Positions 1 through 14,028 are shown, numbered from the stretch's first letter. The stretch is 64,000 nt of DNA from Escherichia coli (GCF_030013595.1 NZ_CP122768.1), one strand, 5' to 3'. A program made the numbers and translations. The notes: a model not told the origin generated them from the letters alone.

Positions 1-232
1 AGCGGCGGCAAAGTGGCAGCAGCTACAACGCGGAGCCGCAGCGTTCTCCATCACATTGGCACGTGGACGCGCAGAACTCTACCCCGAAATGCATGGCACG
101 GTAACAGGCTTTAAAAGCGAGATTGATAATCAGGACTGGATTATTGCGAAAGCCGAGCACACCATTGATAACAGCGGCTTTACCACGCAGCTTGAGCTTG
201 AGGCAAAAATCCCGGAATGGATAGCAGAATGA
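1..232 (+). CDS. 3' fragment of a phage late/tail gene, probably P2 gpD-like (runs off window start)
   Basis: Open frame from window start to TGA at 230-232 (..FTTQLELEAKIPEWIAE*); plus-strand, immediately upstream of an ogr-like gene as in P2 (D then ogr). Identification from position and weak sequence memory only. Confidence 0.4.
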   Translation, partial: AAAKWQQLQRGAAAFSITLARGRAELYPEMHGTVTGFKSEIDNQDWIIAKAEHTIDNSGFTTQLELEAKIPEWIAE

Positions 233-396: not shown

Positions 397-1032
397 TTAG
401 CGAGCTAATATATTCAAAGAATTTAACAATTGAGTGTCGAGTGTTTCAGTTGCAGGAATCGGTAATCCATTCGCAATGCGGTAATTTTTCACAGACAGCC
501 TTGTGGATGGCCCCATTATGCCGTCAATATTTCCGTTATAAAATCCCCTGTCCAGCAATGCGAACTGAACTCGCATAATCAATCGCTTACGTTTCTCTGC
601 ATCAGAAGCAAGCCCATTACTCGTACGGTTAACCTCTGAAGTTCCAACAGAACTCGTGTTAGTGGTTCTATTATTATCGTTAGAACGAAGTGCACGCACC
701 GAGGAAGAGGACGATGAGGAACTTGCACCTGAACTTGAAGAACCAGATGAACTTGGTGAGCTGTATGTTTTTGGATAATAGGGGGTACTTCCACCATAGT
801 ATCCACCACCTGATGAGGATCTATGAGAGCTATGGCTCCTATGAGAACTATGGCTTCGATGCCCTGCGATATAAAATGGGACTTCCGTGTTAAGTGGAGC
901 TATCACTAAATCATGCTCATTAAGAGTCATACCAGGTAAATCACTCGCTCCTGTAGATGAATCGCTTGCCCATACAGAATTGTTGAGAGCCAAAAATCCC
1001 GGAAGTAGAGCAGCAAAATTAAACTTTTTCAT
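397..1032 (-). CDS. hxsA: HxsA-type His-Xaa-Ser repeat protein (signal peptide, tandem H-x-S triplets, Ser/Gly/Tyr-rich tract, C-terminal peptidoglycan-binding domain)
   Basis: Translation from MKKFNFAALLPGFLALNNSVWA (Sec-like signal) contains HRSHSSHRSHSSHRS, then SSPSSSGSSSSGASSSSSSSS, then a PG_binding_1-like C-terminus (LLDRGFYNGNIDGIMGPSTRLSVKNYRIANGL). Start ATG overlaps upstream gene stop (ATGA). Confidence 0.8.
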   Translation of the reverse strand: MKKFNFAALLPGFLALNNSVWASDSSTGASDLPGMTLNEHDLVIAPLNTEVPFYIAGHRSHSSHRSHSSHRSSSGGGYYGGSTPYYPKTYSSPSSSGSSSSGASSSSSSSSVRALRSNDNNRTTNTSSVGTSEVNRTSNGLASDAEKRKRLIMRVQFALLDRGFYNGNIDGIMGPSTRLSVKNYRIANGLPIPATETLDTQLLNSLNILAR

Positions 1033-2141
1033 AAAATTGGTCTCGGTGATTGATGAAAACGGCCTTTTGAGGAACTGAAATAGCCAGCACAGGAAGGCTT
1101 CTGAGTACATTCATCACATTCTTTTGGATAGTAATTTTTCCAATCAGAGATCGACTGAACAGCAAGCTCCCTAGCCCTTTCAGGAAGATAACACAAAGGA
1201 TAATTAAAAATTGTCAGAGGTATGCCTGACCTGTATGCAGCGTCTATGGCAGAGATTATTTTCTCACTATAACTACTGTGATCAATGAAGATGGTGGACC
1301 AGTTTTTTCGTGCCCAACCGATAGGCTCCAACCCCATAAGGGAAATCTGATTGATGTTGGAGAACACACGGCCAGCGAATTCTACGATATCATCCAATTC
1401 GGTATAGTTAGCCAGTGTAGGAATAACTCTAAGTTCGATATTAATCCCCAAGTTTCCTGCATTGATTAACCCTTTAACCGTTTCATTAAATGCGCCATCA
1501 CTCCCTACCAGATGATCATGCACAAGTGGTCTTGATGAGTAGAGCGGGATACCAAAGGTGATTTTGATCTTTTTGCTTCGCTTTGCCATTTCCTGTGTAA
1601 AGTTGGTATCAGCAAATTTGCGTCCGTTTGTTAAAACATGTAAAGCAGTATCTGGTGAATTCTCGATGATAAAATCAATGAAGTGAAGGAAGTCATCCCC
1701 ATATAGCAAAGGTTCACCACCGCTGACCCCAACAACTCCGTTCAAGCCAAATGAAGCTATAGCAAGAGCTGATTGGGTAAGTAGCCAGTCATCATTTATT
1801 TTCTTTGGTGGCTGCGAACAAAACAGACACAAGTTATTGCAGCGTTCCGTAACTAAGACAGTATTATGATTGGCTTTGCGTGACAGAATAACGCGTATCA
1901 TATTGCCATTGTTGATTATCCCAATATCTCCATCTTCAATTGACTCAAATAATTCAGTGCTAATAACAGAGAAATCAAAGCATGGTGGAATGGCATCATT
2001 ATTGCCTTCAGCAACTACTAGCAAATTGGGCAAAAAGAATAAAGGGTTCACTGGTTTTTGTTTGCATAACCGATAGAACCCCGTGGGCACGTTCTCTGTA
2101 GAAGCAAAATGAAAGATATCGTTCCTGATAACCTCAGACAT
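1029..2141 (-). CDS. Radical SAM maturase of the His-Xaa-Ser system (HxsB/HxsC-type; which of the two is not resolved)
   Basis: 370 aa ORF with CNNLCLFC (CxxxCxxC radical SAM cluster) and a C-terminal Cys-rich region (CDECTQKPSCAGY); sits between the other rSAM gene and hxsA with overlapping stop/start codons. Confidence 0.8.
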   Translation of the reverse strand: MSEVIRNDIFHFASTENVPTGFYRLCKQKPVNPLFFLPNLLVVAEGNNDAIPPCFDFSVISTELFESIEDGDIGIINNGNMIRVILSRKANHNTVLVTERCNNLCLFCSQPPKKINDDWLLTQSALAIASFGLNGVVGVSGGEPLLYGDDFLHFIDFIIENSPDTALHVLTNGRKFADTNFTQEMAKRSKKIKITFGIPLYSSRPLVHDHLVGSDGAFNETVKGLINAGNLGINIELRVIPTLANYTELDDIVEFAGRVFSNINQISLMGLEPIGWARKNWSTIFIDHSSYSEKIISAIDAAYRSGIPLTIFNYPLCYLPERARELAVQSISDWKNYYPKECDECTQKPSCAGYFSSSKGRFHQSPRPIL

Positions 2142-3522
2142 ATGCCCATCCTTTTAGCATCTCAGCCTTCGAACCACCCTCTGAGATGCAGTTCATCAGA
2201 TACCTGAACATCCCCTTGTGATATTGACAAAACGTTGAACGACTCCTATCACCGACAGGCTCACCCTGTACACTTATGTTCTGGCATGGATCTGAACCAC
2301 AAAATGGTTGATATGCACATGTATCACAACCTGGCAGAGCAAAATTGAACGATGAACTCAATACTGCGTTATAGTAAGGACTATCAGAAAATGATAGCGT
2401 CTTAACTTCACCCGCACTGAACTCCGTTTCAGGATTCACCTTCTGCAACATACGGCTCTCATCGCTACCATATACTCGACCGTCATAATTGAAAAGAATA
2501 CTGTTAAGCACGACTCCACTTGGAGACTTTAAATCCGCATAACCACTAAAACCGGGATTGAAGATCCTTTTCAGATGAATGGAGGCCGAATGTTCCACAA
2601 CCCTTATCCCTTCATTATTAATCTTAAGGATTTCATCTATCAACGAGGCATAGAAGCTGAAGTATTCGTCCATAGAAAAGGTGAAAGAAGCTTTTTGTGC
2701 AAACCCATAGGGACTAACAGGTCGGATAAACATGTCCTTGAGACCAAGAGACAAGTGAGCCTGAACAATCGATTCAGGACGTCTGATAAGCTCTTTAGTA
2801 ACTGTAGTAACCGTTGCAACGCGGCCAGCACCTAAAGAGTGTTTGATAGCCTCTACCCCTGACACTGTTCTACTGTACGCAAGCCCACGACCAAGAATTC
2901 GATTACTGTTGTGAACAACTTCCTCACCATCAAGCGACACAGAGAACGTTATGTTCCGGTCTCTCGACCATTCAATCATATCCTCATTCAAGACAGACAG
3001 ACTTGATGCCACCACCATCTCAAAATTGGTTCTTCCCAGCGTTTCAGCACATTGATCATAGATGCTCTGAATTAAATCAAACCGCAAGAGAGGCTCCCCA
3101 CCCTGTATCTCTATTTTGTAAGGTGGCGTTGATAGTTTTTTAATAGCCGAAATAATATCGGGGATGAGCTCAGGATTTAGGTCGTAACCTGAGGCATTAA
3201 CAGAAGCTCTACTAACCTGGCAATACTTGCATGTATGGTCACAACGTAATGTGGGTACAATCATGAAAATTGGCCTGACAGCCAGTTCATTCATCAATCG
3301 TTTTGCAAAAGCAGAACTTAAAGCATAGGGAGTTATAGCAGATGAGCTTTCACTGGTTATGAAAAGCTTACTTTCTAGCACGTTTGATTGCTCCGAACTA
3401 ATTCGCTCATCAGAAAGATCAATAAGGTCTTGCTCACCAATGAAATGATGAAAACCTGCAAGGTTGCTTATAAACACCTGTCCATTAGGCAATCTGTCAA
3501 AATTAAATGGCATCAATTCCAT
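2134..3522 (-). CDS. Radical SAM/SPASM-type maturase of the His-Xaa-Ser system (HxsB/HxsC-type)
   Basis: 462 aa ORF with CDHTCKYC radical SAM motif and C-terminal auxiliary-cluster cysteines (CDTCAYQPFCGSDPCQ...FCQ); stop overlaps next gene start by 8 nt; start overlaps hxsD stop (TAATG). Confidence 0.8.
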   Translation of the reverse strand: MELMPFNFDRLPNGQVFISNLAGFHHFIGEQDLIDLSDERISSEQSNVLESKLFITSESSSAITPYALSSAFAKRLMNELAVRPIFMIVPTLRCDHTCKYCQVSRASVNASGYDLNPELIPDIISAIKKLSTPPYKIEIQGGEPLLRFDLIQSIYDQCAETLGRTNFEMVVASSLSVLNEDMIEWSRDRNITFSVSLDGEEVVHNSNRILGRGLAYSRTVSGVEAIKHSLGAGRVATVTTVTKELIRRPESIVQAHLSLGLKDMFIRPVSPYGFAQKASFTFSMDEYFSFYASLIDEILKINNEGIRVVEHSASIHLKRIFNPGFSGYADLKSPSGVVLNSILFNYDGRVYGSDESRMLQKVNPETEFSAGEVKTLSFSDSPYYNAVLSSSFNFALPGCDTCAYQPFCGSDPCQNISVQGEPVGDRSRSTFCQYHKGMFRYLMNCISEGGSKAEMLKGWAYV

Positions 3523-3836
3523 TATGAAAGCCTCTCATCAACACTGCGAAGCACTTTATGGACAATAGAGTCTCTCAACGCCCCTGTTTTATGCTGTAGC
3601 TTTTCTCGCAAAGAGTAATCATTAAGCAGCCTATCGAATTCATAAAGGAATTTGGGATTATCGTTTTCAAAAGAGATTATCCAGTGGGAAACGTCTTCAT
3701 GGAGTTTCCATCGAGTAAGCGGAGTCATCCAATATAGACTATTGCGTATAACCCATTCAGAATATAGTTCTTTCTCAAACACTCTTTCGCTCATTGCAAT
3801 TATCTTCCAATACAAATATTCATGATCAGCAACCAC
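3522..3836 (-). CDS. hxsD: HxsD-type small protein carrying the LLNDYxLRE signature
   Basis: 104 aa ORF containing FDRLLNDYSLREKLQ; first gene of the four-gene minus-strand operon. True start may be an internal Met (MSERVF). Confidence 0.75.
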   Translation of the reverse strand: MVADHEYLYWKIIAMSERVFEKELYSEWVIRNSLYWMTPLTRWKLHEDVSHWIISFENDNPKFLYEFDRLLNDYSLREKLQHKTGALRDSIVHKVLRSVDERLS

Positions 3837-4046: not shown

Positions 4047-4307
4047 ATGTTCCGTTGTCCGCTTTGTGGCGCATCCGCCCGAATCCGCACCAGTCGTCCG
4101 GAAAATGATTCAAACACCGTGCGGCAAAAGTATTACCAATGTAACAACCTAGAATGCGGCGTATGCTTCTCAACACTGGAAGCTTTCCATAAATTCACAT
4201 CAAAACACGCCTCCGGCGCTCACTCTTCAGAAGGTATCCCGTGGCATGAACTGCCAGCTTCACACAAAGGAAACAATCAGATGAGTTTGCCCTTACCTCA
4301 AAATTAA
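4047..4307 (+). CDS. ogr: Ogr/Delta-family zinc-finger late-gene transcription activator
   Basis: MFRCPLCGASARIRTSR...YYQCNNLECGVCF matches the P2 Ogr pattern (MFHCPLC..ARTSR...YHQCQNVNCSATF); C-terminally extended relative to P2 Ogr. Confidence 0.75.
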   Translation: MFRCPLCGASARIRTSRPENDSNTVRQKYYQCNNLECGVCFSTLEAFHKFTSKHASGAHSSEGIPWHELPASHKGNNQMSLPLPQN

Positions 4308-4367: not shown

Positions 4368-4631
4368 ATGGTCGGAGGGAATACCCGAAGGCCAGATGTG
4401 GAAAGGCCCCGGAAAACATTTCTGTTTAACCGAGGCCCTAACCGCATTACCTTGACAAGTGAAAGGTTAGCGCCTCTCCGGAAAAGGAGCAAGTGCTATG
4501 TCGCAAAAATCGCTTACGGCCATCATGTTCTGCGTGACGGCAATCCTCATCATCTGGATGTTGCACGGTTCGCTGTGCGAAATACGGATGAGATTCTGGG
4601 GAGCGGAGTTTGCGGCGTTCTTACAGTGTAA
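4368..4631 (+). CDS. mok-like reading frame overlapping hok (translational coupling frame of a hok/sok locus)
   Basis: 87-codon ORF in a different frame that starts upstream of and overlaps the hok-like frame, the arrangement typical of mok. Confidence 0.4.
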   Translation: MVGGNTRRPDVERPRKTFLFNRGPNRITLTSERLAPLRKRSKCYVAKIAYGHHVLRDGNPHHLDVARFAVRNTDEILGSGVCGVLTV

Positions 4632-4638
4632 GCAGTAA
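4498..4638 (+). CDS. hok: Hok/Gef-family type I toxin, 46 aa
   Basis: ATG at 4498 preceded by GGAGCA; peptide MSQKSLTAIMFCVTAILIIWMLHGSLCEIRMRFWGAEFAAFLQCKQ has one hydrophobic helix and the Hok-type C-x-T...SLCEIR motif; the 5' element GGGTGCCTT (4352-4360) is complementary to AAGGCACCC (4695-4703), resembling tac/fbi pairing. Confidence 0.7.
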   Translation: MSQKSLTAIMFCVTAILIIWMLHGSLCEIRMRFWGAEFAAFLQCKQ

Positions 4639-4902: not shown

Positions 4903-4928
4903 AAGAAAAAAGGCCGCAGAGCGGCCTT
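4903..4928 (-). terminator. Rho-independent terminator ending the minus-strand lambdoid gene set
   Basis: aggccgcagagcggcct hairpin with an A-run on plus strand (T-run on minus strand) immediately 3' of the ORF ending at 4949. Confidence 0.55.
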
Positions 4929-4948
4929 TATGGTTTATTGACAATTGA

Positions 4949-5164
4949 TTAAGACGTGTGGCACTTATTGGCACACCAATAGCAACCATTCACCCGGGAA
5001 TATCCTTTGGCCTTTGCCTCTGTTACCGCCGAAGAACAATCACTATAGTAACCAAGGTAATCGCGGTTAGCTACAGCAGGAAGATATGAACATTCCTCAG
5101 CATGCACCTCATGATCGCCATTGCTCTGAGCATTTTTGTTCACGTAATAGTGTTTAAAAACCAT
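4949..5164 (-). CDS. Hypothetical small Cys-rich phage protein
   Basis: 71 aa ORF, terminator immediately downstream; no family recognised. Confidence 0.4.
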   Translation of the reverse strand: MVFKHYYVNKNAQSNGDHEVHAEECSYLPAVANRDYLGYYSDCSSAVTEAKAKGYSRVNGCYWCANKCHTS

Positions 5165-5287
5165 TGTATAACTCCATGTTGACGCTGATATTCAGCATTA
5201 ACATGCTATATCACCAATTACACAAACATAAGCTTGTTATTTCAATTAGTTGATAACGATCACCACTGAACTTTGGCCTTGCGAAAT

Positions 5288-5497
5288 TCAAATGTTTTTC
5301 TGACTATTATTGGGCCGATAAACAGATATTATTTGAGCGTTTTGGTTCATTACATAAGCAATATCTCCATCTTTCAGAATGACTTTCCCATCCTTTCCCG
5401 ATACGGCAATACTCCGCTGCTCAGGATGATAGCCAATGCTACGCCCGCAATGGATCTCTTCCCCACCATTTTGAGACATGACTTTTACAGTTAACAT
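5288..5497 (-). CDS. Hypothetical small phage protein
   Basis: 69 aa ORF; no family recognised. Confidence 0.35.
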   Translation of the reverse strand: MLTVKVMSQNGGEEIHCGRSIGYHPEQRSIAVSGKDGKVILKDGDIAYVMNQNAQIISVYRPNNSQKNI

Positions 5498-5584
5498 TTT
5501 TCTGCTCCTATTTAGATGCCCTTTCCATCCGGGCCACTGTTCAAAGTAAATTTAGATTCAACAATATTCTGCTCTTACAGGCGA

Positions 5585-5767
5585 TCAGTTCTGCATACAC
5601 TGCCGAACACCGTCGACAATTTCACAGACCTGAGAAGCTGTATCGAAAAGCTGGCGCGCCTTATCCAGGCTGACGCATCCCACCAGGAAAAAAGGCACCA
5701 GTATCGCTACCAGTGCCCATTTCGCCGCCGTTCGCGGCATTCTGTGTGTCCAGTGTTTTCGCTTCAT
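5585..5767 (-). CDS. Small predicted lipoprotein (possible o-spanin or exclusion lipoprotein)
   Basis: MKRKHW... with hydrophobic signal and lipobox LVGC; lies downstream of the lysis cassette. Confidence 0.4.
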   Translation of the reverse strand: MKRKHWTHRMPRTAAKWALVAILVPFFLVGCVSLDKARQLFDTASQVCEIVDGVRQCMQN

Positions 5768-6266
5768 CTCACTATCCACCAATCAATCCGGATAAGCTCA
5801 ATACTCGCCAGGCGGTGGAAATGAAAATGGCAACCAACATTGCTGAAAATGAAAGGCCAACAACCACACAGAGAATTCGCGCCAGTTTTATAATGCTATC
5901 TGACATATTTACCCCTGCCCCACTTACGATTTCACAGCAATGAGCAATTTTGCCATCCCATACAGCATCGGAGACACAGCGATACCGACCGCCACCCACT
6001 TAATGGCAAAAGCCACCGCTCTGCTGATGTCATCAGTTACAGGCGCTTTCAATTCAAGGCCGTTTTTCATAGTCAACCTCAACAGAATTAGTTTATACTT
6101 CCTCATGTTCTCCTTTGCCTTACCCAAGGCCAGAAACAGAAAACCCCGGACTGTTACCGCAGCCGGGGTTTTTGCTATCTGATGCTATGCCCCTTACTTT
6201 CGCTCATCGTAGCCCCAGAAAAGAGCCTGCATGAGTTGAGGGTGTTCAGCACTTCAGTGTCAGTTT

Positions 6267-6812
6267 TTAAACCACCACGCGCTCTTTCATCCAGCCATAG
6301 ACAAACGACTCATTGGCCTCGCGTTTCTCTGCCAGCTCCAGATAACGCTCGCCCTGCGTACAGTTCAGGGCTTTCACCAGTACCAGTTCACCATCCCTGC
6401 TGCGATTTTTCAGATATGCCCGTAATGCATTAAGAGTACGCGGCCCGATGCGTCCATCAGCATCCATATCCGGATAGAGTTTCCCGCGCAGGTTGAAAAC
6501 GTTCAGCCAGCGCTGAAGCATTCTGGACGCCACAGTTGGCCCCATGTTCACGCCCGTATCGCACAACTCTGCGGCAATATCCGGAGACAGGTCCTCAACC
6601 TGGTCGAATCGTGGTCCGTACCAGTAGTCCGCCTCGAGTATTTCCAGCGCCTGCCCACGCGTCAGGTCACGCATATCGCCCTGATAACCGTGTGCACGGG
6701 CAACTTTTTCAGTGATGCCCCATTTAGTCGGACCACCTTTATCATCCGGGTGATTGACGTAACCGCCCTCTTTTCCCAGAATTTCGTCAAAAATTTCATC
6801 TTTCGACTTCAT
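6267..6812 (-). CDS. Endolysin, GH108-like muramidase with peptidoglycan-binding region
   Basis: MKSKDEIFDEILGKEGGYVNHPDDKGGPTKWGITE N-terminus typical of GH108 lysozyme-like phage proteins; follows two holin-like membrane genes. Confidence 0.65.
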   Translation of the reverse strand: MKSKDEIFDEILGKEGGYVNHPDDKGGPTKWGITEKVARAHGYQGDMRDLTRGQALEILEADYWYGPRFDQVEDLSPDIAAELCDTGVNMGPTVASRMLQRWLNVFNLRGKLYPDMDADGRIGPRTLNALRAYLKNRSRDGELVLVKALNCTQGERYLELAEKREANESFVYGWMKERVVV

Positions 6813-6813
6813 A

Positions 6814-7104
6814 TCAGCGCCTTCGTAATACAAGGATTTTTGATACGTTCCCGCGTGCTCGTATCACCAGCACGCAGAACACCAGGTTAATCAGGACGAC
6901 CAGCCAGTTACCGGGAGGAAAGCGACCACACAGATAACAAAGCGGCGCAAAGGCATAAAGCAGCATCAGCAGCCAGGCCAGCCACGACATCAGCGGTTTA
7001 TGTCTCGACTCACCACGACGATAAAAAAAGAGCGTCAGCACGATAACCGTGCTTAACACCACATTCAGTAATCCGGGAAGGTTACTTAACATTACCGCCT
7101 CCAC
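6814..7104 (-). CDS. Small multi-pass membrane protein, holin/antiholin-like
   Basis: 96 aa, strongly hydrophobic segments, wedged between holin-like gene and endolysin. Confidence 0.45.
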   Translation of the reverse strand: MEAVMLSNLPGLLNVVLSTVIVLTLFFYRRGESRHKPLMSWLAWLLMLLYAFAPLCYLCGRFPPGNWLVVLINLVFCVLVIRARGNVSKILVLRRR

Positions 7105-7471
7105 CCCGCAGACGGGAGAACAGCCCGGATACCAGCGATGCGATATCCTGCTGGTGGATGAATGAGAGAATCTTCACCGACACCACCGATACCAGTACCG
7201 CACAAAGCGCGTCGAGAGATGTGCTGTGGAGATTCAATTTTTCGACCAGCCAGGACGCAAGGACATCCGCCCCCAGCACGCCAACAATGAACGACACCAG
7301 AAAATGCGCCGCCACACGCCAGACAGAAATCACCTGTGGCATCGTGGCCACAAACAACGCCCCGGCAAACGCGCCAAACACAATCCCGAAATCCGTCCCG
7401 GTAAACAGCCCGAATACCGTCGCCCCGCCGAGCGCCACAGCAGTGCTGGAACCGGATAAGGGTTCAGACAT
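7082..7471 (-). CDS. Holin-like membrane protein
   Basis: Start MSEPLSG at 7471 with GGAGAA RBS; Gly/Ala-rich transmembrane segments; first gene of the lysis cassette. Confidence 0.5.
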   Translation of the reverse strand: MSEPLSGSSTAVALGGATVFGLFTGTDFGIVFGAFAGALFVATMPQVISVWRVAAHFLVSFIVGVLGADVLASWLVEKLNLHSTSLDALCAVLVSVVSVKILSFIHQQDIASLVSGLFSRLRGGGGNVK

Positions 7472-7670
7472 ATTTATTCTCCTGTAAATAAAAAGGACCA
7501 TCAGCGGCCCCGTAACTGACATTTTATTAACGTTTGAAGATATGGATATTTATCAGGGTTTACCGTTTTCTGAACCCTGGATATGTTAAGCATTCAGCCC
7601 GCCAGTGGTGGGACGCTGGCTCATCATAGAGAAAGAGGGATGGCTGATTACCTCTGATCAGGGAAATCAC

Positions 7671-7940
7671 ATGCAGTTTTTACATAAAAGAATGCATTTA
7701 AATGCAGGAGATACGGTAGTGGTTGACTGCTCTCATCAGTGCAATATTTTGCTGATGACAGATACAAACTTTAATAACTACCGCAACGCAAGAAGCTTTC
7801 ATCATCACGGTGGTGGCGGTTTTTTTCAGAGATTACCGGCCCACCTTCATGTACCGCATTCAGGTTACTGGAATATTACAATTGATTTAGGAGGCGGAAG
7901 TGCAGCTATTCGGCACTCCATTTCCGTCATCCCAGCATAG
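7671..7940 (+). CDS. Hypothetical phage protein, antisense to the late operon
   Basis: ATG at 7671 with AGGGA RBS (the listed ORF begins at a GTG at 7605); hairpin plus T-run downstream at about 8196-8235. Confidence 0.4.
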   Translation: MQFLHKRMHLNAGDTVVVDCSHQCNILLMTDTNFNNYRNARSFHHHGGGGFFQRLPAHLHVPHSGYWNITIDLGGGSAAIRHSISVIPA

Positions 7941-8298
7941 CAACTCGCCTTTAGCCTGAGTAAATGCGTCCTCAAGGACGGCAACGAGTCGCAGTTGCGT
8001 GCCGTCCTTTACACAGCGTGTGCAGGCAATACCTTCAGAACTTTCATTATGCCGAGCTCATACAATTTCACCATTTTGTTCAACTACAACGCTCATAATT
8101 TTCTTACACTTTTTTAATAAACCACACCAATAACAACCATCACCGATACCTTTTGTATGCTGTTATTTTGCATTACGGTGTAACGGCAAGAGCCCCCTCC
8201 CCGCCCTGAAAGGCTCTGTGTTTTTGATGTGCGCCTGATGTGGCTCAGATACAAAAAAGCTCGCAGTAGCGAGCTAACAGAAAATATGAAGCATGTTT

Positions 8299-8577
8299 TT
8301 ATCCACGAAGTATGACGTTGAATTCATCCATACCGACACGGCTGGCTATCTCGTTGTATTCCTCAACAAGAGCCAGCAATTCTGAATTAGCAGCCATGAA
8401 CTCTTCAAAAACCTTATGGATGGCATCACTGTTTAATAAAACAATGTTCTTTCCTGAAAGGCGATCAGGGGTAGAAAATATAACTGTCAAACGACTAAAG
8501 GCCCTGGCTCGTTCAGCATTAACATCCTCAATACGCTGCAACAAGCTGGAGCACCTGGAAATATCATCAATATTCAC
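8299..8577 (-). CDS. Hypothetical protein (cargo between Q and lysis genes)
   Basis: 92 aa ORF followed by a minus-strand hairpin terminator (gctcgcagtagcgagc with T-run) near 8254-8280. Confidence 0.4.
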   Translation of the reverse strand: MNIDDISRCSSLLQRIEDVNAERARAFSRLTVIFSTPDRLSGKNIVLLNSDAIHKVFEEFMAANSELLALVEEYNEIASRVGMDEFNVILRG

Positions 8578-9095
8578 TCTACTCCTGCCATCTGGATGAT
8601 AATCATTTCACGGAGAGAAGCACTCAGAAGTACCACTGAAGTATAGCTGGTGACCAGCTACTTACACATCTATTGCCATCCTGCTGATGATAAGTCGACA
8701 TTAGCCCTTCTGTCTATAAACGAAACAAAGGATAAGTTCAGGTTTTAAACACACTGCCAGGATAAAGTATTGTATACAGTATAGAAGAGCGTTATTGAAT
8801 GACATAAAAAACCAGACCTAATCCCTTATCCGGAAGATATATCAAATAAACGGGGAAAATGTATTAAGATGGCGTTCCTATTCTCTCCATCCCTGATGTC
8901 CACGTAACTCGTTATAGAATCAGAACGCCATCTGAATACACACAAAAAAGCTGACTTCACACCCTCCAGATGTGTGAACGCAGTGCCCGACCACGTGCTT
9001 TCGCAACCAGCACAAATCATTTTAAAGCATCGAAAAACGATCAGAATATATCAGAACTTCCTAGCATCCTGCTTGGCTTAGATATTAATCGAGGA

Positions 9096-10181
9096 TTAGC
9101 TCCTGTTCTTATCTAATTGTGCATTTCGCAATTTATCGTTCAGCACCAATATTTCACCAACTGTTTGTTCAAAACGCCCGGACTCAAGTTCAACCCCAAT
9201 CGTGCGACGCCCCAATCCCATTGCTGCTTTTATTGTTGCCCCCGATCCCATAAAAAAATCCGCAACCACATCCCCCGGACGACTGCTGGCAGAAATTATC
9301 TGACGCAACATATCCGCCGGTTTTTCGCAGGGATGCTTACCCGGATAATACTGCACGGGCTTATGCGTCCAGACGTCCGTATAAGGAACGGCGGCCGATA
9401 CAGAAAAATAACGCCGCAGAGATTTGTATTCCTCAAGCAGACTGGCATATTGCCGGTTCAGTTCACTGTATGTGCTGACCAGTTGCTGGTGTGGCGTTGC
9501 CAGCTCCCCACGCTGGTGCTTTTCTTCTGCAACACACGCGAACAGCGCCTGCAGTTTTCTGTAATCAGCTTCGTTCGGTAACTGCCACTGACAGGTACCA
9601 AACCAGTGCGACACCATGTTTTTCTTTCCGGTGGCTTCCGCTATCTGTTTGGACGTTATCCCCAGTGATTCACGCGCATCACGGAAGTAAGAAATCAGCG
9701 GGGCCATGACGTGTTGTTTAAGCTCGCGCTCCTTTGCCGCATAGCCATCATTTTTTGGCTGGTATGGCCCCTGATAATGTTCGGCAAACAGAATGCGCTC
9801 TGTTGCCGGGAAATACGCCCGCAGGCTTTCTTTGTTGCACCCGTTCCAGCGTCCGGATGGCTTCGCCCAGATAATGTGGTTCAGCACATTAAAGCGCTCA
9901 CGCATCATGATTTCGGTGTCAGATGCCAGGCGATGACCACAGAACAGGTAGAGACTTCCGGCAGGTTTCAGTACCCGCCAGAACTGAGCCAGACACTGAT
10001 CCAGCCATTTCAGGTAATCATCGTCGCCCTTCCACTGGTTATCCCAGCCCTCGGGCTTCACTTTAAAGTATGGCGGGTCTGTGACTATCAGATCGACAGA
10101 GTTTTCCGGTAAGGTCTGGATAAATTCCAGGCAATCAGCGTTGATTAACTCACAACTGGATATTTTTACAGTATCAACCAT
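9096..10181 (-). CDS. Orphan DNA N6-adenine (or N4-cytosine) methyltransferase, beta class
   Basis: LIVTDPPYF (motif IV) precedes DFFMGSGATIKAA (motif I); no adjacent restriction endonuclease gene. Confidence 0.75.
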   Translation of the reverse strand: MVDTVKISSCELINADCLEFIQTLPENSVDLIVTDPPYFKVKPEGWDNQWKGDDDYLKWLDQCLAQFWRVLKPAGSLYLFCGHRLASDTEIMMRERFNVLNHIIWAKPSGRWNGCNKESLRAYFPATERILFAEHYQGPYQPKNDGYAAKERELKQHVMAPLISYFRDARESLGITSKQIAEATGKKNMVSHWFGTCQWQLPNEADYRKLQALFACVAEEKHQRGELATPHQQLVSTYSELNRQYASLLEEYKSLRRYFSVSAAVPYTDVWTHKPVQYYPGKHPCEKPADMLRQIISASSRPGDVVADFFMGSGATIKAAMGLGRRTIGVELESGRFEQTVGEILVLNDKLRNAQLDKNRS

Positions 10182-10331
10182 AGATCAATAAGCACTTCTC
10201 TGATAGGCTCATACCGCTTTTGCGCAAAGCAGATGGGCCTGAGGTTTGCTTGTGACCCTAACGCATGAGCAGATGGCTGGCAGGTGCCGCTAACACCCAC
10301 CAGCCGCCCATTACCACAAATGAAAAAACCT

Positions 10332-10529
10332 TCACTGCGGAAGGCGTCTGTAACAACCGAACTGATAATCTGCCAGACCCGCCATAACAAGCTGGGTCAG
10401 TATTAACTGACAGCGTTCGCGTGAAAGGTAAGTATTCTGCGCAATTTCCCCAACTGTTGCCGGTTCAGTGACGCTTAATTCATTAAACACCACTCTGGCT
10501 GTTTCGGTCATATCCTGCTGTTTTAGCAT
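10332..10529 (-). CDS. Small hypothetical protein, possibly DNA-binding
   Basis: 65 aa ORF upstream of the methyltransferase. Confidence 0.3.
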   Translation of the reverse strand: MLKQQDMTETARVVFNELSVTEPATVGEIAQNTYLSRERCQLILTQLVMAGLADYQFGCYRRLPQ

Positions 10530-10702
10530 GTCTTTTTCTCTTTATTGGTTAACGTGACATACCAATAACTCTTGTCGAAAAAGCCAGCAAGCTGAAAGAC
10601 CGGTATTAATAACCACCTGCACATTTTATGTACCGAACCATTTTTCTGGCATAAAAAACCTCTCAATGGCGGGCGGTAAAAATCTTTGTTACTCAAGAAA
10701 TT

Positions 10703-11416
10703 TTAACGCACTCTGACTGTATTAATTTCAAAATCATTAATATTTCCGCTATTAAATATAACGAATTTCTTACCCCCACTCCTGTATGATTTCGATAACA
10801 CCAGACGATCATCATAACGCGCAATAATGTAATACCATACATTCTCATAGTGGATCGCCTGATATTCCCTCTTAAACTGTGGTTTGTACCAACCGGCAAT
10901 AAGAGAGAATGCCCAGAAATAAATCATAAACCCAGCCATCATGAACTCAATTCGGTGATGACGAATAAAAGACATTTCCGAAAAACATTTGACTGAAACA
11001 AGTCTTCTTCCAAACCTGACAAAAAGCGTGATTGTAAAGGCAGCAAGAATGCAGAAAATCAGTACATCTGGCTCAACATGCTGATGGATTACCGAAAACT
11101 CCAGAACAGGTGGAATAAAAAGCAGCAATATCGCGAGAAAAAGCCGGATAAAACTCAAATTTTGTATATTGCGCTTTTGTTTTATGCCCAAAAAGAAAAC
11201 AATACCAACTCCCCATCCAATAAGGAATATAACGATAACTGTCACAGCATAAAACAAACTTCGTGCTACATCATCGACACCAGCCCCGACAACCCACCAT
11301 GGAAAGCCATAGTAAAATGAAGTACCCCATCCATAGAAATAAGCGCTTCCCCATCCTAGACAGCCCATATAAGCAACAAAAAGTGAAGAGTTTCTGAGCA
11401 GAGCACTGTCATCCAT
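10703..11416 (-). CDS. Multi-pass membrane protein of unknown function (first gene after pR'/tR')
   Basis: 237 aa with about four hydrophobic helices and an approx 50 aa soluble C-terminus; lies in a visibly AT-rich segment. Confidence 0.5.
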   Translation of the reverse strand: MDDSALLRNSSLFVAYMGCLGWGSAYFYGWGTSFYYGFPWWVVGAGVDDVARSLFYAVTVIVIFLIGWGVGIVFFLGIKQKRNIQNLSFIRLFLAILLLFIPPVLEFSVIHQHVEPDVLIFCILAAFTITLFVRFGRRLVSVKCFSEMSFIRHHRIEFMMAGFMIYFWAFSLIAGWYKPQFKREYQAIHYENVWYYIIARYDDRLVLSKSYRSGGKKFVIFNSGNINDFEINTVRVR

Positions 11417-11554
11417 AGTAACACCATTAACAACTCAAAAATATCAACACATATTACATAACAAATTGGATTCCATGCAGTCAAGGGGCGTCATTGATGG
11501 AGAAAGTATTGGCACAATCATCATCACGTTTAATGTCTATGCCATTTTTTTGGG

Positions 11555-11583
11555 GATAAAAAAACCCGCTCGGTCACGGGTTT
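11555..11583 (-). terminator. tR'-like Rho-independent terminator
   Basis: aaacccgtgaccgagcggguuu hairpin followed by T-run on the minus strand, about 50 nt downstream of the putative pR'. Confidence 0.55.
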
Positions 11584-11637
11584 TACTAGCTTTGCCATCA
11601 CGTATAAAAACGGCAAAATATCAGATTCACACGAAAT

Positions 11638-11666
11638 ATATGCCTTTTTATCTACTTTTGCAATAC
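11638..11666 (-). promoter_or_regulatory. pR'-like late promoter immediately downstream of Q
   Basis: Minus-strand TTGCAA, 17 nt spacer, TATATT; positioned between Q stop (11671) and the terminator. Confidence 0.45.
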
Positions 11667-11670
11667 TTTG

Positions 11671-12342
11671 CTATGAAAATGCCGCCTTTTGTTTTGAACG
11701 TGTTCCCTCCACCAACAATAAAGCTTCACCATCCAGCCGATGAAAAATGTGTTTCATTGCAACCCAGTGACCAGTAAATGTCTTGGACCAGTTTTTGGTT
11801 GTTACTCCCACCAGTAACGCCAGTTCCTGGTATTCGTAACCTTCCCCACCAAAAAGCTCAGCTTTTACCGCCTGCGCCGCCAACCAGATCAACGTCTTCA
11901 GGCGCACCAGAGTTTTTCCTGCAATTTTTCTGGTACCGGATTGAGCATTAAATTCAGTCCACGCCCACTGCGTTATCGCGATCTGATGCTCCCAGCAAAT
12001 GCTACCGCTGTAACACCACAGCAGCCAGGCTTTATGATGTTCTTCAAGAGACAGAACGGCGCGTCGCCATGATGATGTCGAAAACTCAACCGGACTGACC
12101 AGGGCAATTGATGAACCTTTCACCAGCGATTGCTTTCCCGGGATCGGTGGATTATCCAGCGTTACTATTTTTCCAGTGACCTTATCGCGGTACCGGATTT
12201 TTTTACGTCTGTAACGCCCTGTATTGAACATGGCATTCTCCTGCCAGGCTTCAAGCTGACCTTTTGTTGCTCCACTCAAATCAGCGGTGGCGATCATGAG
12301 CTGCTCACGCACAAACTGTAAATACTGGTTATTCATGCGCAC
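11671..12342 (-). CDS. Probable late antiterminator (Q-like)
   Basis: 223 aa ORF directly upstream of a promoter/terminator pair and downstream of rusA, the canonical Q position; family assignment by context only. Confidence 0.45.
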   Translation of the reverse strand: MRMNNQYLQFVREQLMIATADLSGATKGQLEAWQENAMFNTGRYRRKKIRYRDKVTGKIVTLDNPPIPGKQSLVKGSSIALVSPVEFSTSSWRRAVLSLEEHHKAWLLWCYSGSICWEHQIAITQWAWTEFNAQSGTRKIAGKTLVRLKTLIWLAAQAVKAELFGGEGYEYQELALLVGVTTKNWSKTFTGHWVAMKHIFHRLDGEALLLVEGTRSKQKAAFS

Positions 12343-12692
12343 TCCAGTTCTGTGATTTTTATCCCCAGCCGACCACCGGGAACAACCTGACCGCGCATAA
12401 TATTAACTTCATCAAACTGCTCATCGTCGATAAGCAGTCCCGCATGTGTCAGCGCATCCAGTGGTGCCTTCAGGATATTGTCCAGGTCGCGGCGGCGCTT
12501 ATCCGGTGGCTCTGCAATAATTTTTATTGCCAGCCTTCCGGACAGGTTTAATTTCAGTCGCTGCTGGCGAACAATAAGCGCCACATCACGGCGATAACGC
12601 TCACCGGCTTTTGATACAAAATATGTGCTGCCACGACGTCGCCAGTAGGTGTTCACCGTTGGCGGGTAAGGCAAAACAAATTCTATCCCCAT
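12333..12692 (-). CDS. rusA: RusA-family Holliday junction resolvase
   Basis: 119 aa; PYPPTVNTYWRRRG...RRRDLDNILKAPLDALTHAGLLIDD matches RusA conserved motifs. Confidence 0.85.
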   Translation of the reverse strand: MGIEFVLPYPPTVNTYWRRRGSTYFVSKAGERYRRDVALIVRQQRLKLNLSGRLAIKIIAEPPDKRRRDLDNILKAPLDALTHAGLLIDDEQFDEVNIMRGQVVPGGRLGIKITELECA

Positions 12693-12704
12693 CAGTAACC
12701 TCTT

Positions 12705-13754
12705 TTATCCGAGTACGCCTGTTGCAAAGGCGTGATCAAGAAAACGAAAAATTAAATCAACCTGAGAACCATGTTTTTCTTCGAATGCCTGCGGATCCGC
12801 ATGAAGCTCGTTGTGATGCTCCCGACACAGCGGCAACGTAAAAATATCGTGGGCCTTTGTTCCCATCCCTCCCTGACCGTGACCAATCAGGTGATGGGGA
12901 TCGTCGGCTGGCTTACCACAACACGCACACGGCTGTGTCTTCACCCAGCGTGTGTATTTCTCATTTACCCAACGGCGACGTTTAGGTCGCTTCATGAAAG
13001 ATTCCGGAGACTCAGGATCAACGGCAATGCTGACCACCGTCTTTTCCTGTGGTGTGTTCTGTTGCTGGTGGACGTGAGGCAACGGCGCAAGATTTTTTGT
13101 GCGCTGCTTCAGTATGCTGGTGGCGGTCTGCTCTCCCGGTACGATGTCGCTTTCGCGGTAAACCGTGCGGATTTTTTCCGCACGTAATCCCAGAGAACGA
13201 CGTAATACTGCCTCCGGTAGCGCGTCCGCCACCTGATTGCAGACCGCCCACCAGGATAATTCAGCCAGCGATAATTCCCGTTCCTGTGCACCACTTATTG
13301 CGTGACGTATGACGTCAATCATCCAGGCTGTCAGATTTTGTTGAGCAAGCTGCCCGAGTGATTCGGATGTCTGGTCGCGCAGCTGGTTGTCGCAGTGCCA
13401 GCACAACAACATTGCGCCGGTACCGTAACGATGTATGACGGTTTCACTGTGGTGATAGTCTCCATGAGGCCACTGGCAGGATTTAACATGACGCAGGAGC
13501 CAGTCAGACAGTGCGCCAGCGCCGCCAGCAGCACGAATCACACGCTCATCGCTGAAAAACGGCAGCAATGTTTTATCTTCCGCCAGCGGCTGGCGAACGG
13601 CAGGAACGACTCCGGACGGCATACCGCGCATGTTTTTCGGTTCCGGCTCCACCAGCACCCTGCCGTTATGGAATACCTGCATGGATTCACGCCCCGGCTT
13701 AAGGACCACCAGCCCGAGTTCCGGTACCGGAACAGGTCGAAGTAATACCCGCAC
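12705..13754 (-). CDS. DUF968-like lambdoid nin-region protein with C-terminal Cys/His cluster
   Basis: 349 aa; C-terminus CACCGKPADDPHHL...CREHHNELH; family assignment from memory of YdfU-like prophage proteins. Confidence 0.5.
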   Translation of the reverse strand: MRVLLRPVPVPELGLVVLKPGRESMQVFHNGRVLVEPEPKNMRGMPSGVVPAVRQPLAEDKTLLPFFSDERVIRAAGGAGALSDWLLRHVKSCQWPHGDYHHSETVIHRYGTGAMLLCWHCDNQLRDQTSESLGQLAQQNLTAWMIDVIRHAISGAQERELSLAELSWWAVCNQVADALPEAVLRRSLGLRAEKIRTVYRESDIVPGEQTATSILKQRTKNLAPLPHVHQQQNTPQEKTVVSIAVDPESPESFMKRPKRRRWVNEKYTRWVKTQPCACCGKPADDPHHLIGHGQGGMGTKAHDIFTLPLCREHHNELHADPQAFEEKHGSQVDLIFRFLDHAFATGVLG

Positions 13755-13755
13755 G

Positions 13756-14028
13756 TTACCTCCAGATGCGTTGCTGGAATGTGCGGGACGGACGCGGCGG
13801 GCGTTCGGAATAAGGGAGCCTGACGTAGATTATCCAGTGATGGTAGTCGAGGCTAAGGGCTTTCTTAAACTCATACCCACGTCTGCGGTAGTTATGAATC
13901 AGCCATTCGGCCTGTTCTTCAGTGCAGGGATCGTGCTGATACCAGTCATATTTGAATGTGTGAGAACACCGCCCTTGCCTGCTGGCAGGGGCGGTATCAG
14001 AATTGTGATGTTTGGTATTGTGCGCCAT
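13756..14028 (-). CDS. Hypothetical nin-region protein
   Basis: ORF; likely start MAHNTKHH. Confidence 0.35.
   Translation of the reverse strand: MAHNTKHHNSDTAPASRQGRCSHTFKYDWYQHDPCTEEQAEWLIHNYRRRGYEFKKALSLDYHHWIIYVRLPYSERPPRPSRTFQQRIWR

Follow-up and report, generated by a model that had tools for sequence, protein, structure and literature searches.

What a 211-residue, apparently exported protein with a row of His-Xaa-Ser (HxS) triplets contributes to the cell in which it is encoded beside two radical SAM enzymes is the question raised by a minus strand gene at the start of a window of 64,000 nucleotides of Escherichia coli DNA (GCF_030013595.1, NZ_CP122768.1). The gene very probably encodes the protein that is both substrate and effector of a four-gene HXS anti-phage system, present here in full and carried as prophage cargo, with the supporting experiments having been performed on the system of E. 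coli strain MEM and the present allele being assigned to it by sequence. Haft and Basu (J Bacteriol 2011, as cited in PMC13128918, ref. 22, and in PMC9062424) defined the His-Xaa-Ser system by computation, and its function followed in 2026 when the HXS operon of strain MEM was cloned and found to act against phages (Li et al., Nat Commun 2026; PMC13128918). HXS restricts 110 of 113 diverse coliphages with all four genes being needed, it has no abortive-infection phenotype and leaves adsorption unchanged, and it delays the entry of T7 DNA several-fold with escape mutations arising in the ejectosome proteins gp15 and gp16 (PMC13128918). The locus described here is a further ordinary copy of this published and correctly named family, the biology of interest being that of a radical SAM-matured protein, apparently anchored in the wall, that stops phage DNA at the periplasm. 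The additions made here are modest, namely the place of the operon in a prophage, as cargo flanked by gpD and ogr, the restriction of divergence in codons 1-93 of hxsA to silent changes, and a conserved acidic segment ahead of the repeats.

Identity of hxsA and its operon

The gene had been read as hxsA in the initial annotation, an identification that stands. HxsA scores 161.3 bits against NCBIfam TIGR03979 (cut-off 121.65) in a full-length match that aligns residues 4-209 with positions 4-189 of the 190 in the profile, and all four Hxs proteins exceed the curated equivalog cut-offs with full-length matches (Table 1). In E. coli loci at least 99% identical to this one PGAP names the gene hxsA, and the gene is the known hxsA, already annotated. 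The architecture is without any difference from that of the His-Xaa-Ser system of NCBIfam/TIGRFAMs (TIGR03976-TIGR03979). The view of HxsA as a protein-sized substrate of an adjacent radical SAM pair is likewise borne out, with a product of 211 aa and hxsB and hxsC lying alongside.

The genes are arranged hxsD-hxsB-hxsC-hxsA, all on the minus strand with hxsA as the last gene, and stop and start codons overlap by 1 nt at hxsD/hxsB, 8 nt at hxsB/hxsC and 4 nt at hxsC/hxsA (ATGA), such that the four genes form a translationally coupled operon. With the PGAP start used in identical loci hxsD is 273 nt long. Promoter and terminator scans of the sequence gave counts that were not above those of shuffled sequence and none was assigned. 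HxsB carries CxxxCxxC at 94-101 (C94/C98/C101) together with C399 and C402, HxsC carries the same motif at 101-108 (C101/C105/C108) together with C342 and C345, and HxsD has the motifs LYW at 20-22 and LLNDYSLRE at 56-64. The open frame of hxsA extends 5′ to an ATG at 1110, which would give a protein of 237 aa. This start was rejected in favour of the ATG at 1032, which overlaps the stop codon of hxsC (ATGA), is the one used by PGAP in identical loci and corresponds to the common start of the homologues, whose N-termini always read MKK or MKR.

The MEM system has these four genes too, likewise arranged D-B-C-A. The cysteines mutated in MEM (HxsB 98, 101, 399 and 402; HxsC 105, 108, 342 and 345) are cysteines at the same numbers here, and HxsD of MEM has the motifs LYW and LLNDYxLRE, as here, with the numbering offset by 2. 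For HxsA of MEM, a signal peptide at 1-22 (SignalP 6.0), five HxS units and a PG-binding domain have been reported, and SHRSS in the last repeat was identified as the site of a +8 Da change (PMC13128918). All of these sequence features are common to HxsA here, where SHRSS lies at residues 69-73, the two proteins differing in length with 211 aa here and 214 aa in MEM. The matching cysteine positions together with SHRSS indicate that the copy here is collinear with the characterised MEM system. Judged from the residue numbers and from a 214-aa E. coli allele, the N-terminal region of HxsA is likely to be the same as that of MEM. The computed m/z (5+) of residues 48-78 here is 677.1 unmodified and 678.7 with +8 Da, compared with a published value of 714.5 for the +8 Da form of residues 48-78 (PMC13128918), and no simple sub-peptide of HxsA here fits m/z 714.5 within tolerance.

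Table 1. Features of the hxs operon, of HxsA and of the flanking genes, with positions counted from the first nucleotide of the window.
Feature	DNA position	Strand	HxsA residues	Description or basis
P2-type tail gene D, 3′ end	1..232	+		window begins within the gene; phrog_12925 and phrog_52, tail protein; left flank of cargo slot
hxsA CDS	397..1032	-	1-211	211 codons plus stop at 397-399, by translation
Predicted PG_binding_1-type three-helix domain	400..612	-	141-211	KRKR just before; Pfam, profile and fold
Conserved SSGGGY and low-complexity linker	613..816	-	73-140	predicted disordered, pLDDT 42-50
Ser-rich tract SSPSSSGSSSSGASSSSSSSS	700-762	-	91-111	translation
Five tandem HxS units, HRS HSS HRS HSS HRS (HRSHSSHRSHSSHRS)	817-861	-	58-72	translation
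Acidic segment	862..966	-	23-57	net charge -5, ends in APLN..P.YIAG before the repeats; alignment and charge
Signal-peptide-like N-terminus, Sec/SPI-type, MKKFNFAALLPGFLALNNSVWA	967..1032	-	1-22	charge, hydrophobic core, VWA site
hxsC	1029..2141	-		radical SAM/SPASM maturase, 370 aa; TIGR03977, 398 bits (cut-off 268)
hxsB	2134..3522	-		radical SAM/SPASM maturase, 462 aa; TIGR03978, 559 bits (cut-off 370)
hxsD	3522..3794	-		90 aa; TIGR03976, 90.6 bits (cut-off 50)
ogr/Delta-like zinc-finger late activator	4047..4307	+		annotation in identical loci and phrog_603 transcriptional regulator; right flank
hok	4498-4638			beyond ogr

Organisation and conservation of HxsA

A search of a large protein collection returned 622 relatives of HxsA, with 109 full-length homologues being analysed and 71 diverse sequences entering the alignment. 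The five-unit array lies exactly where it had been placed, both its residue numbers (58-72) and its coordinates (817-861) on the minus strand being correct. A periodicity of about 9 bp had also been proposed, which is true only at the level of the codon pattern, since Tandem Repeats Finder gives a period of 18 bp (1.9 copies, 94% matches, 821-855) and not one of 9 bp, making HRS-HSS the DNA unit.

The repeat, whose number in homologues had been regarded as informative, is not absent from them. Two HxS units were counted in 2 of the 109 full-length homologues, three in 2, four in 12, five in 67 and six in 25, such that 104 of the 109 have four to six units with five being the commonest. The distance from the N-terminus to the array is fixed, the median first residue being 57, the first and last unit are nearly always HRS, and the X position is occupied by Arg in 293 of 548 units and by Ser in 181. 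Among the 71 aligned sequences H58, S69, H70 and S72 are invariant and the remaining His and Ser positions of the repeat are at least 90% conserved, and when the residues of HxsA itself were shuffled at least three tandem units arose in 6 of 200,000 trials. As judged from these comparisons the HxS repeat is not incidental.

The repeats are followed by SSGGGYY and then by a Ser/Asn/Thr-rich low-complexity stretch, with Ser making up 51% of residues 73-111. The Ser-rich tract singled out in the initial annotation is present, at residues 91-111, but is unconserved and lies within a linker of varying length (27-121 aa in homologues), in which the median fractions of Ser and Pro are 0.23 and 0.17 compared with 0.37 and 0.04 in HxsA here. 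On the evidence of the alignment the tract is part of a variable linker that is Pro/Ser-rich in other members of the family. Residues 114-139 of HxsA have been found to be dispensable (PMC13128918). Matches of HxsA to the Pfam families QWRF (E 0.1) and SSP160 (E 1.9) were dismissed as low-complexity noise.

A PG_binding_1-like C-terminus had been recognised and is upheld by several lines of comparison. Pfam PG_binding_1 (PF01471) matches residues 154-191 (i-E 3e-4), and a profile of the 71-member family matches PG_binding_1 modules in the PDB (E 4e-7 to 8e-3), those of SleB, an L,D-transpeptidase, SltB3, SltB2, CtpB, phiKZ gp144 and the DD-peptidase 1lbu. The top PDB profile match, 9emm_E, owes its alignment at the HxS repeats to an expression His-tag, that stretch of the match being an artefact. 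The AlphaFold2 model of HxsA is confident only at about 141-211 (pLDDT 87-98), with helices at 144-161, 175-188 and 200-205, and the best 14 Foldseek matches to the PDB were all PG_binding_1 domains, headed by the N-terminal domain of SleB (rmsd 1.1 Å over 56 columns, target TM 0.70). According to profile and model the C-terminus has a PG_binding_1-type fold, with peptidoglycan binding itself being predicted.

At the other end of the protein, the N-terminal export signal that had been proposed is supported by heuristic sequence features, with MKKFNF at the N-terminus placing KK at residues 2-3, an 11-residue hydrophobic core (FAALLPGFLAL) whose Kyte-Doolittle values average 2.2, and V-W-A occupying -3/-1 ahead of S23. 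Among the 109 homologues the N-terminus is net-positive in 105, has a hydrophobic core in 106 and an AxA-like site in all 109, and the sequence of the region is unusually conserved, with LAALLPGFL standing in the family consensus. The SignalP 6.0 call on HxsA of MEM (PMC13128918) agrees with this reading. Neither a lipobox nor a twin-arginine motif was found in HxsA, there being no Cys anywhere and no RR at the N-terminus, and HxsA as a lipoprotein or a Tat-exported protein was ruled out on these grounds.

Between the signal-like region and the repeats lies an acidic segment which is net negative in 90% of the 109 homologues (median -4), whereas the repeat, the linker and the C-terminal domain of the family are net positive. 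A56 is invariant and an APLN/PxYxAG consensus is conserved immediately before the repeats. The segment is probably a pro-segment or a recognition region for the maturases. In MEM, residues 23-47 are needed for defence and are not recovered from the cleaved form (PMC13128918).

E. coli alleles whose operons are 72-91% identical at the DNA level show how unevenly HxsA has diverged. Residues 1-93 are the same in these alleles, and identical in every full-length E. coli allele examined, with 30-36 silent and 0 replacement differences in codons 1-93, compared with 8-12 replacements in the last 65 residues and further differences in the linker. By this pattern of substitution the first 93 residues are under extreme purifying selection. 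The whole N-terminal third, beyond the repeats alone, is the constrained part, making it a region for biochemical focus. Cys is absent from HxsA and from 106 of the 109 homologues. Without Cys in the substrate the two radical SAM/SPASM enzymes cannot form thioether links, and HxsA as a substrate of the sactipeptide or ranthipeptide type was ruled out for want of Cys donors.

Maturation, export and mode of action

The route that had been proposed for HxsA, from modification in the cytoplasm through export to anchoring at the wall, is the same model as that put forward by Li et al. (2026; PMC13128918). Replacement of the signal peptide abolishes both periplasmic HxsA and defence, mutation of the PG-binding region abolishes defence, and so does changing any single HxS unit to AAA (PMC13128918). 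Only processed HxsA is found in the periplasm, with processing needing HxsB, HxsC, HxsD and the cluster cysteines and with HxsD being bound to HxsC, and the stable periplasmic form spans residue 48 through the C-terminus, the repeats included (PMC13128918). Export and processing are, on these experiments, not a matter of simply removing a Sec signal. A signal peptide is needed, but a construct without it is still cleaved and cleavage depends on HxsB, HxsC and HxsD (PMC13128918).

Taken with the features described above, these results are consistent with a pathway in which a 211-aa preprotein, whose signal-like N-terminus is followed by the acidic segment and the five basic HxS units and whose disordered, Ser-rich linker leads on to a PG_binding_1 domain, would be matured in the cytoplasm by HxsB and HxsC with HxsD, through N-terminal processing and the +8 Da change on SHRSS. 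The acidic segment 23-57 may serve as a recognition or pro-region in this step. Matured HxsA would then be exported to accumulate in the periplasm, where the PG_binding_1 domain would tether it to peptidoglycan and the basic HxS array could bind or obstruct incoming DNA or its channel. Maturation and export are the best-supported steps, resting on the genetics and fractionation in PMC13128918. Tethering to the wall is suggested by homology, the predicted fold and the loss-of-function mutant, and capture of DNA by the HxS array by one in vitro gel shift obtained with periplasmic HxsA, for which the authors themselves list alternatives (PMC13128918).

The step at which the incoming phage is stopped can also be read differently, with matured HxsA being a peptidoglycan-bound obstacle to, or sensor of, the phage ejectosome or tail channel (gp15/gp16 in the case of T7) and not a device for electrostatic DNA capture. 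Such wall-level obstruction is a serious rival because escape mutations fall in channel proteins and the nearest structural relatives of the HxsA C-terminal domain are found in lytic transglycosylases; we regard it as a real, if rather doubtful, possibility. T7 gp16 carries a lytic transglycosylase. In structure the C-terminal domain of HxsA is closest to modules that bind peptidoglycan in lytic transglycosylases and cortex-lytic enzymes (SleB, SltB2, SltB3 and phiKZ gp144). T7 escapes through mutations in gp15 and gp16 and not in DNA, and translocating DNA is normally inside a protein channel, as the authors concede (PMC13128918). On the other side, a pull-down showed no interaction between periplasmic HxsA and gp15 or gp16, HxsA binds DNA in vitro, and the 110 of 113 phages restricted are diverse (PMC13128918). 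A further suggestion of the initial annotation, that a modified His-rich periplasmic protein could bind metal or alter the envelope, finds no echo in the published role, which is anti-phage defence by delayed DNA entry, the word metal appearing nowhere in PMC13128918. Five evenly spaced His residues, invariant or nearly so, and the +8 Da change on the repeat (PMC13128918) would leave room for a periplasmic Zn, Ni or Cu site with a role in metal handling or envelope modification and with phage resistance as a secondary effect. As the main role of HxsA this is nevertheless improbable and finds no support in the sequences analysed, as neither the operon nor its flanks hold a metal-related gene, the E. 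coli copies examined belong to prophages or integrative islands, next to genes of defence type, and not to metal regulons, and the strong and broad phage resistance needs all four genes (PMC13128918). Likewise, the predominance of Arg at X favours binding to a polyanion over binding to metal.

A classical RiPP precursor, in which a small modified peptide would be the active product and the C-terminal part a mere carrier, is less probable still and can largely be set aside. RiPP maturases (PapB, CbpB and the SCIFF maturases) are among the relatives of HxsB and HxsC, N-terminal processing of HxsA does occur (PMC13128918), and short HxS-repeat proteins exist in HxsA2 (NF038296) and HxsA3 (NF038309). 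The tandem HxS repeat is common to these and to HxsA, but their models match only residues 54-77 here, with scores of 25 against a cut-off of 48 and 18.7 against 65, and being only 96 and 81 positions long they presumably describe proteins without a PG-binding domain. The periplasmic species running from residue 48 to the C-terminus with the repeats, and the loss of function upon mutation of the PG-binding region (PMC13128918), both speak against a small peptide as the product, as does a C-terminal domain that is conserved family-wide and confidently folded over some 70 aa of a 211-aa protein. Scarcely credible is the remaining alternative of an ordinary peptidoglycan-binding protein in which low complexity has arisen incidentally in both the repeat and the Ser tract. 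The Ser content of residues 73-111 and the lack of conservation of the Ser tract would agree with it, whereas the near-invariance and regular number of the HxS units across homologues, the freedom of codons 1-93 from replacements and the rarity of three or more units in shuffles do not, such that this reading is refuted for the HxS repeat and holds only for the Ser-rich linker.

The contrast that had been drawn with typical RiPP precursors is true, but HxsA is not without precedent. Exported, protein-sized substrates of radical SAM/SPASM enzymes are found among the sulfatases (anSME) and in the gamma subunit of quinohemoprotein amine dehydrogenase (QhpD). As with HxsA, a SPASM-type enzyme modifies the whole protein in the cytoplasm before export to the periplasm, and the matches of HxsB include both maturase families (TIGR03942, 1.4e-14; TIGR03906, 1.8e-8). 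The chemistry is different, with formylglycine or Cys-Asp/Glu thioethers being formed in these substrates and HxsA having no Cys, and so is the outcome, their products being enzymes whereas HxsA is a defence effector.

Prophage setting and distribution

The initial annotation made no mention of the prophage setting of the hxs operon. In identical loci the annotation of tail gene D is that of a contractile injection system protein of the VgrG/Pvc8 family, with P2 tail genes alongside, and by comparison with these loci the operon occupies, as cargo, the gpD-ogr interval in a P2-like prophage (Table 1). Among 5,426 complete E. coli genomes the same gpD-hxs-ogr arrangement, at no less than 99% identity, was found in 45-47, one of them being O26:H11 11368, where it forms the right end of a P2-like prophage adjoining ihfA. 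A cos-proximal hotspot between gpA and gpQ has already been described for P2, from which the gpD-ogr slot is distinct.

hxsA is present in 155 of the 5,426 complete genomes (2.9%), about 30% of these E. coli copies (45-47 of 155 genomes) being those with the D-ogr position in a P2-like prophage. The divergent alleles examined are in integrase-bearing islands, with ssrA adjoining in the two loci with a visible flank, and there the neighbours of hxs include a DUF6119/TIGR04141 gene along with others of defence type. Every E. coli copy examined lies in a mobile element, be it a P2-like prophage or an integrase island. In the closest complete genomes several hxs copies are broken by IS elements or frameshifts. 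A comparison of the operon DNA with deposited phage genomes gave no match, and a search of phage sequences with the HxsB protein recovered only two distant copies, one in Leptospira phage LE1 (annotated hxsB, 30% identity) and one in a faecal contig, such that no active coliphage carrying the hxs operon was found by either search. The PHROGs cover HxsC and the C-terminal half of HxsB but include no family for HxsA or HxsD. Scanning with PADLOC-DB 2.0.0 (2023) found no Hxs model, and defence annotation with this release overlooks HXS. Membership of pVip (viperin) was rejected, the similarity in PADLOC being a weak, generic radical SAM one (E 1e-7 to 1e-5).

The setting invites comparison with exclusion systems encoded by phages. 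T4 Imm and Sp confer superinfection exclusion through small membrane proteins of narrow spectrum. Like HXS they stop incoming phage DNA at the level of the envelope and do so without cell death, as discussed in PMC13128918, and they are phage-encoded as the copy here is prophage-borne; there is no sequence relationship, and HXS differs in being broad-spectrum and in its enzymatic maturation. A tentative and fairly unlikely extension of the preferred reading of HxsA as an anti-phage effector is that HXS acts here as a prophage-borne, broad superinfection-exclusion module in a second P2 cargo slot, between gpD and ogr, with the acidic segment as a charge-masking pro-segment of the HxS array. Were the charge-masking part to be true, the radical SAM-dependent removal of the acidic segment would arm HxsA, and the repeat might possibly coordinate metal as well.

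The P2-like prophage that carries the present copy is a different setting from the chromosomal one stressed in the published work, in which HXS is regarded as 'intrinsic bacterial' with 77% of it lying outside predicted prophages (PMC13128918). The share of E. coli copies found on P2-like prophages qualifies this published emphasis on HXS as chromosomal and not prophage cargo.

Constraint and peptide mass of HxsA

The first 93 codons of hxsA (754-1032 in the window) differ at 30-36 nucleotides from those of three divergent E. coli versions carried in integrase islands (L003, L004 and L006), with 100% of these differences being synonymous. Among the same E. coli alleles replacements pile up in the linker and C-terminal domain of the protein. 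The signal peptide and the segment preceding the repeats are, like the repeats themselves, under unusually strong constraint. Residues 48-78 (799-891 in the window) have the same sequence in every full-length E. coli allele examined. For HxsA(48-78)+8 Da a precursor of m/z 714.5 (5+) has been published (Li et al., 2026; PMC13128918), whereas the value computed for these residues of the window HxsA with +8 Da is 678.7, a mismatch.

Prophage setting of the P2-borne operon

In the closest complete genomes, the P2-like prophage bearing the hxs operon looks rearranged (5386-12232 in L001; 10684-20232 in L002). In both, the tail block FI-FII-E-T-U and gene D lie on opposite strands with gene D truncated to 573-795 nt, an arrangement suggesting that the prophage of these genomes is probably defective. 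In ETEC1730 an IS66 element adjoins gene D. The window itself opens within gene D.

At the prophage end in the window, just past ogr, sits a hok/gef-family toxin ORF (see table). Likeness to the O26/ETEC locus ends at 4929, about 15 bp short of the position of ihfA in those genomes. From around 4907 onward, the matches are to a segment of lambdoid prophage. None of the best matches listed spanned the junction near 4929; the best of them covered only 89% of the query, from around 4907. In the source genome a second prophage seems to abut the P2-like prophage.

The Leptospira phage vB_LnoZ_CZ214-LE1, a match of the HxsB protein search (H84; KF114877.1, 80102-81502), has an annotated hxsB with 30% identity to the window HxsB, and the PHROGs families include HxsC (phrog_15140) and the C-terminal half of HxsB (phrog_24150). 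Hxs genes in phage genomes thus extend beyond enterobacterial P2-like prophages.

Coordinates of features flanking the hxs operons
Feature	Location	Strand	Details
hok/gef-family toxin ORF	window 4498-4638	+	46 aa, MSQKSLTAIMFCVTAILIIWMLHGSLCEIRMRFWGAEFAAFLQCKQ
Lambdoid prophage segment	window 4907-14000		Q antiterminator, holin-like ORFs, DNA methyltransferase, DUF968
GH108 lysin	window 6267-6833		in lambdoid prophage segment
DUF6119/TIGR04141 gene	L003 7375-8982		integrase island
DUF6119/TIGR04141 gene	L004 7301-8932		integrase island
DUF6119/TIGR04141 gene	L005 7120-8932		integrase island
DUF6119/TIGR04141 gene	L006 4284-5933		integrase island

Island versions and disrupted operons

The island versions of hxs lie in integrase islands, at ssrA wherever the flank is visible. 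Directly 3′ of hxsA and on the same strand, all four island loci examined carry a DUF6119/TIGR04141 "sporadically distributed" gene, which the P2-borne copy in the window lacks. This gene may encode an accessory part of the system or act in defence independently of it.

Several hxs operons, identical apart from the damage, are disrupted (NZ_CP035860.1, NZ_CP117717.1, NZ_CP074845.1 and NZ_CP155523.1), as is that of the island locus L005 (9612-10725). Insertions inside or adjoining hxs genes comprise IS2, ISVsa5 (splitting hxsC), IS600 and one IS3-family element, with O55:H7 CB9615 having a frameshift in hxsC. Such repeated inactivation may indicate that the system is costly, or is selected against in some lineages.
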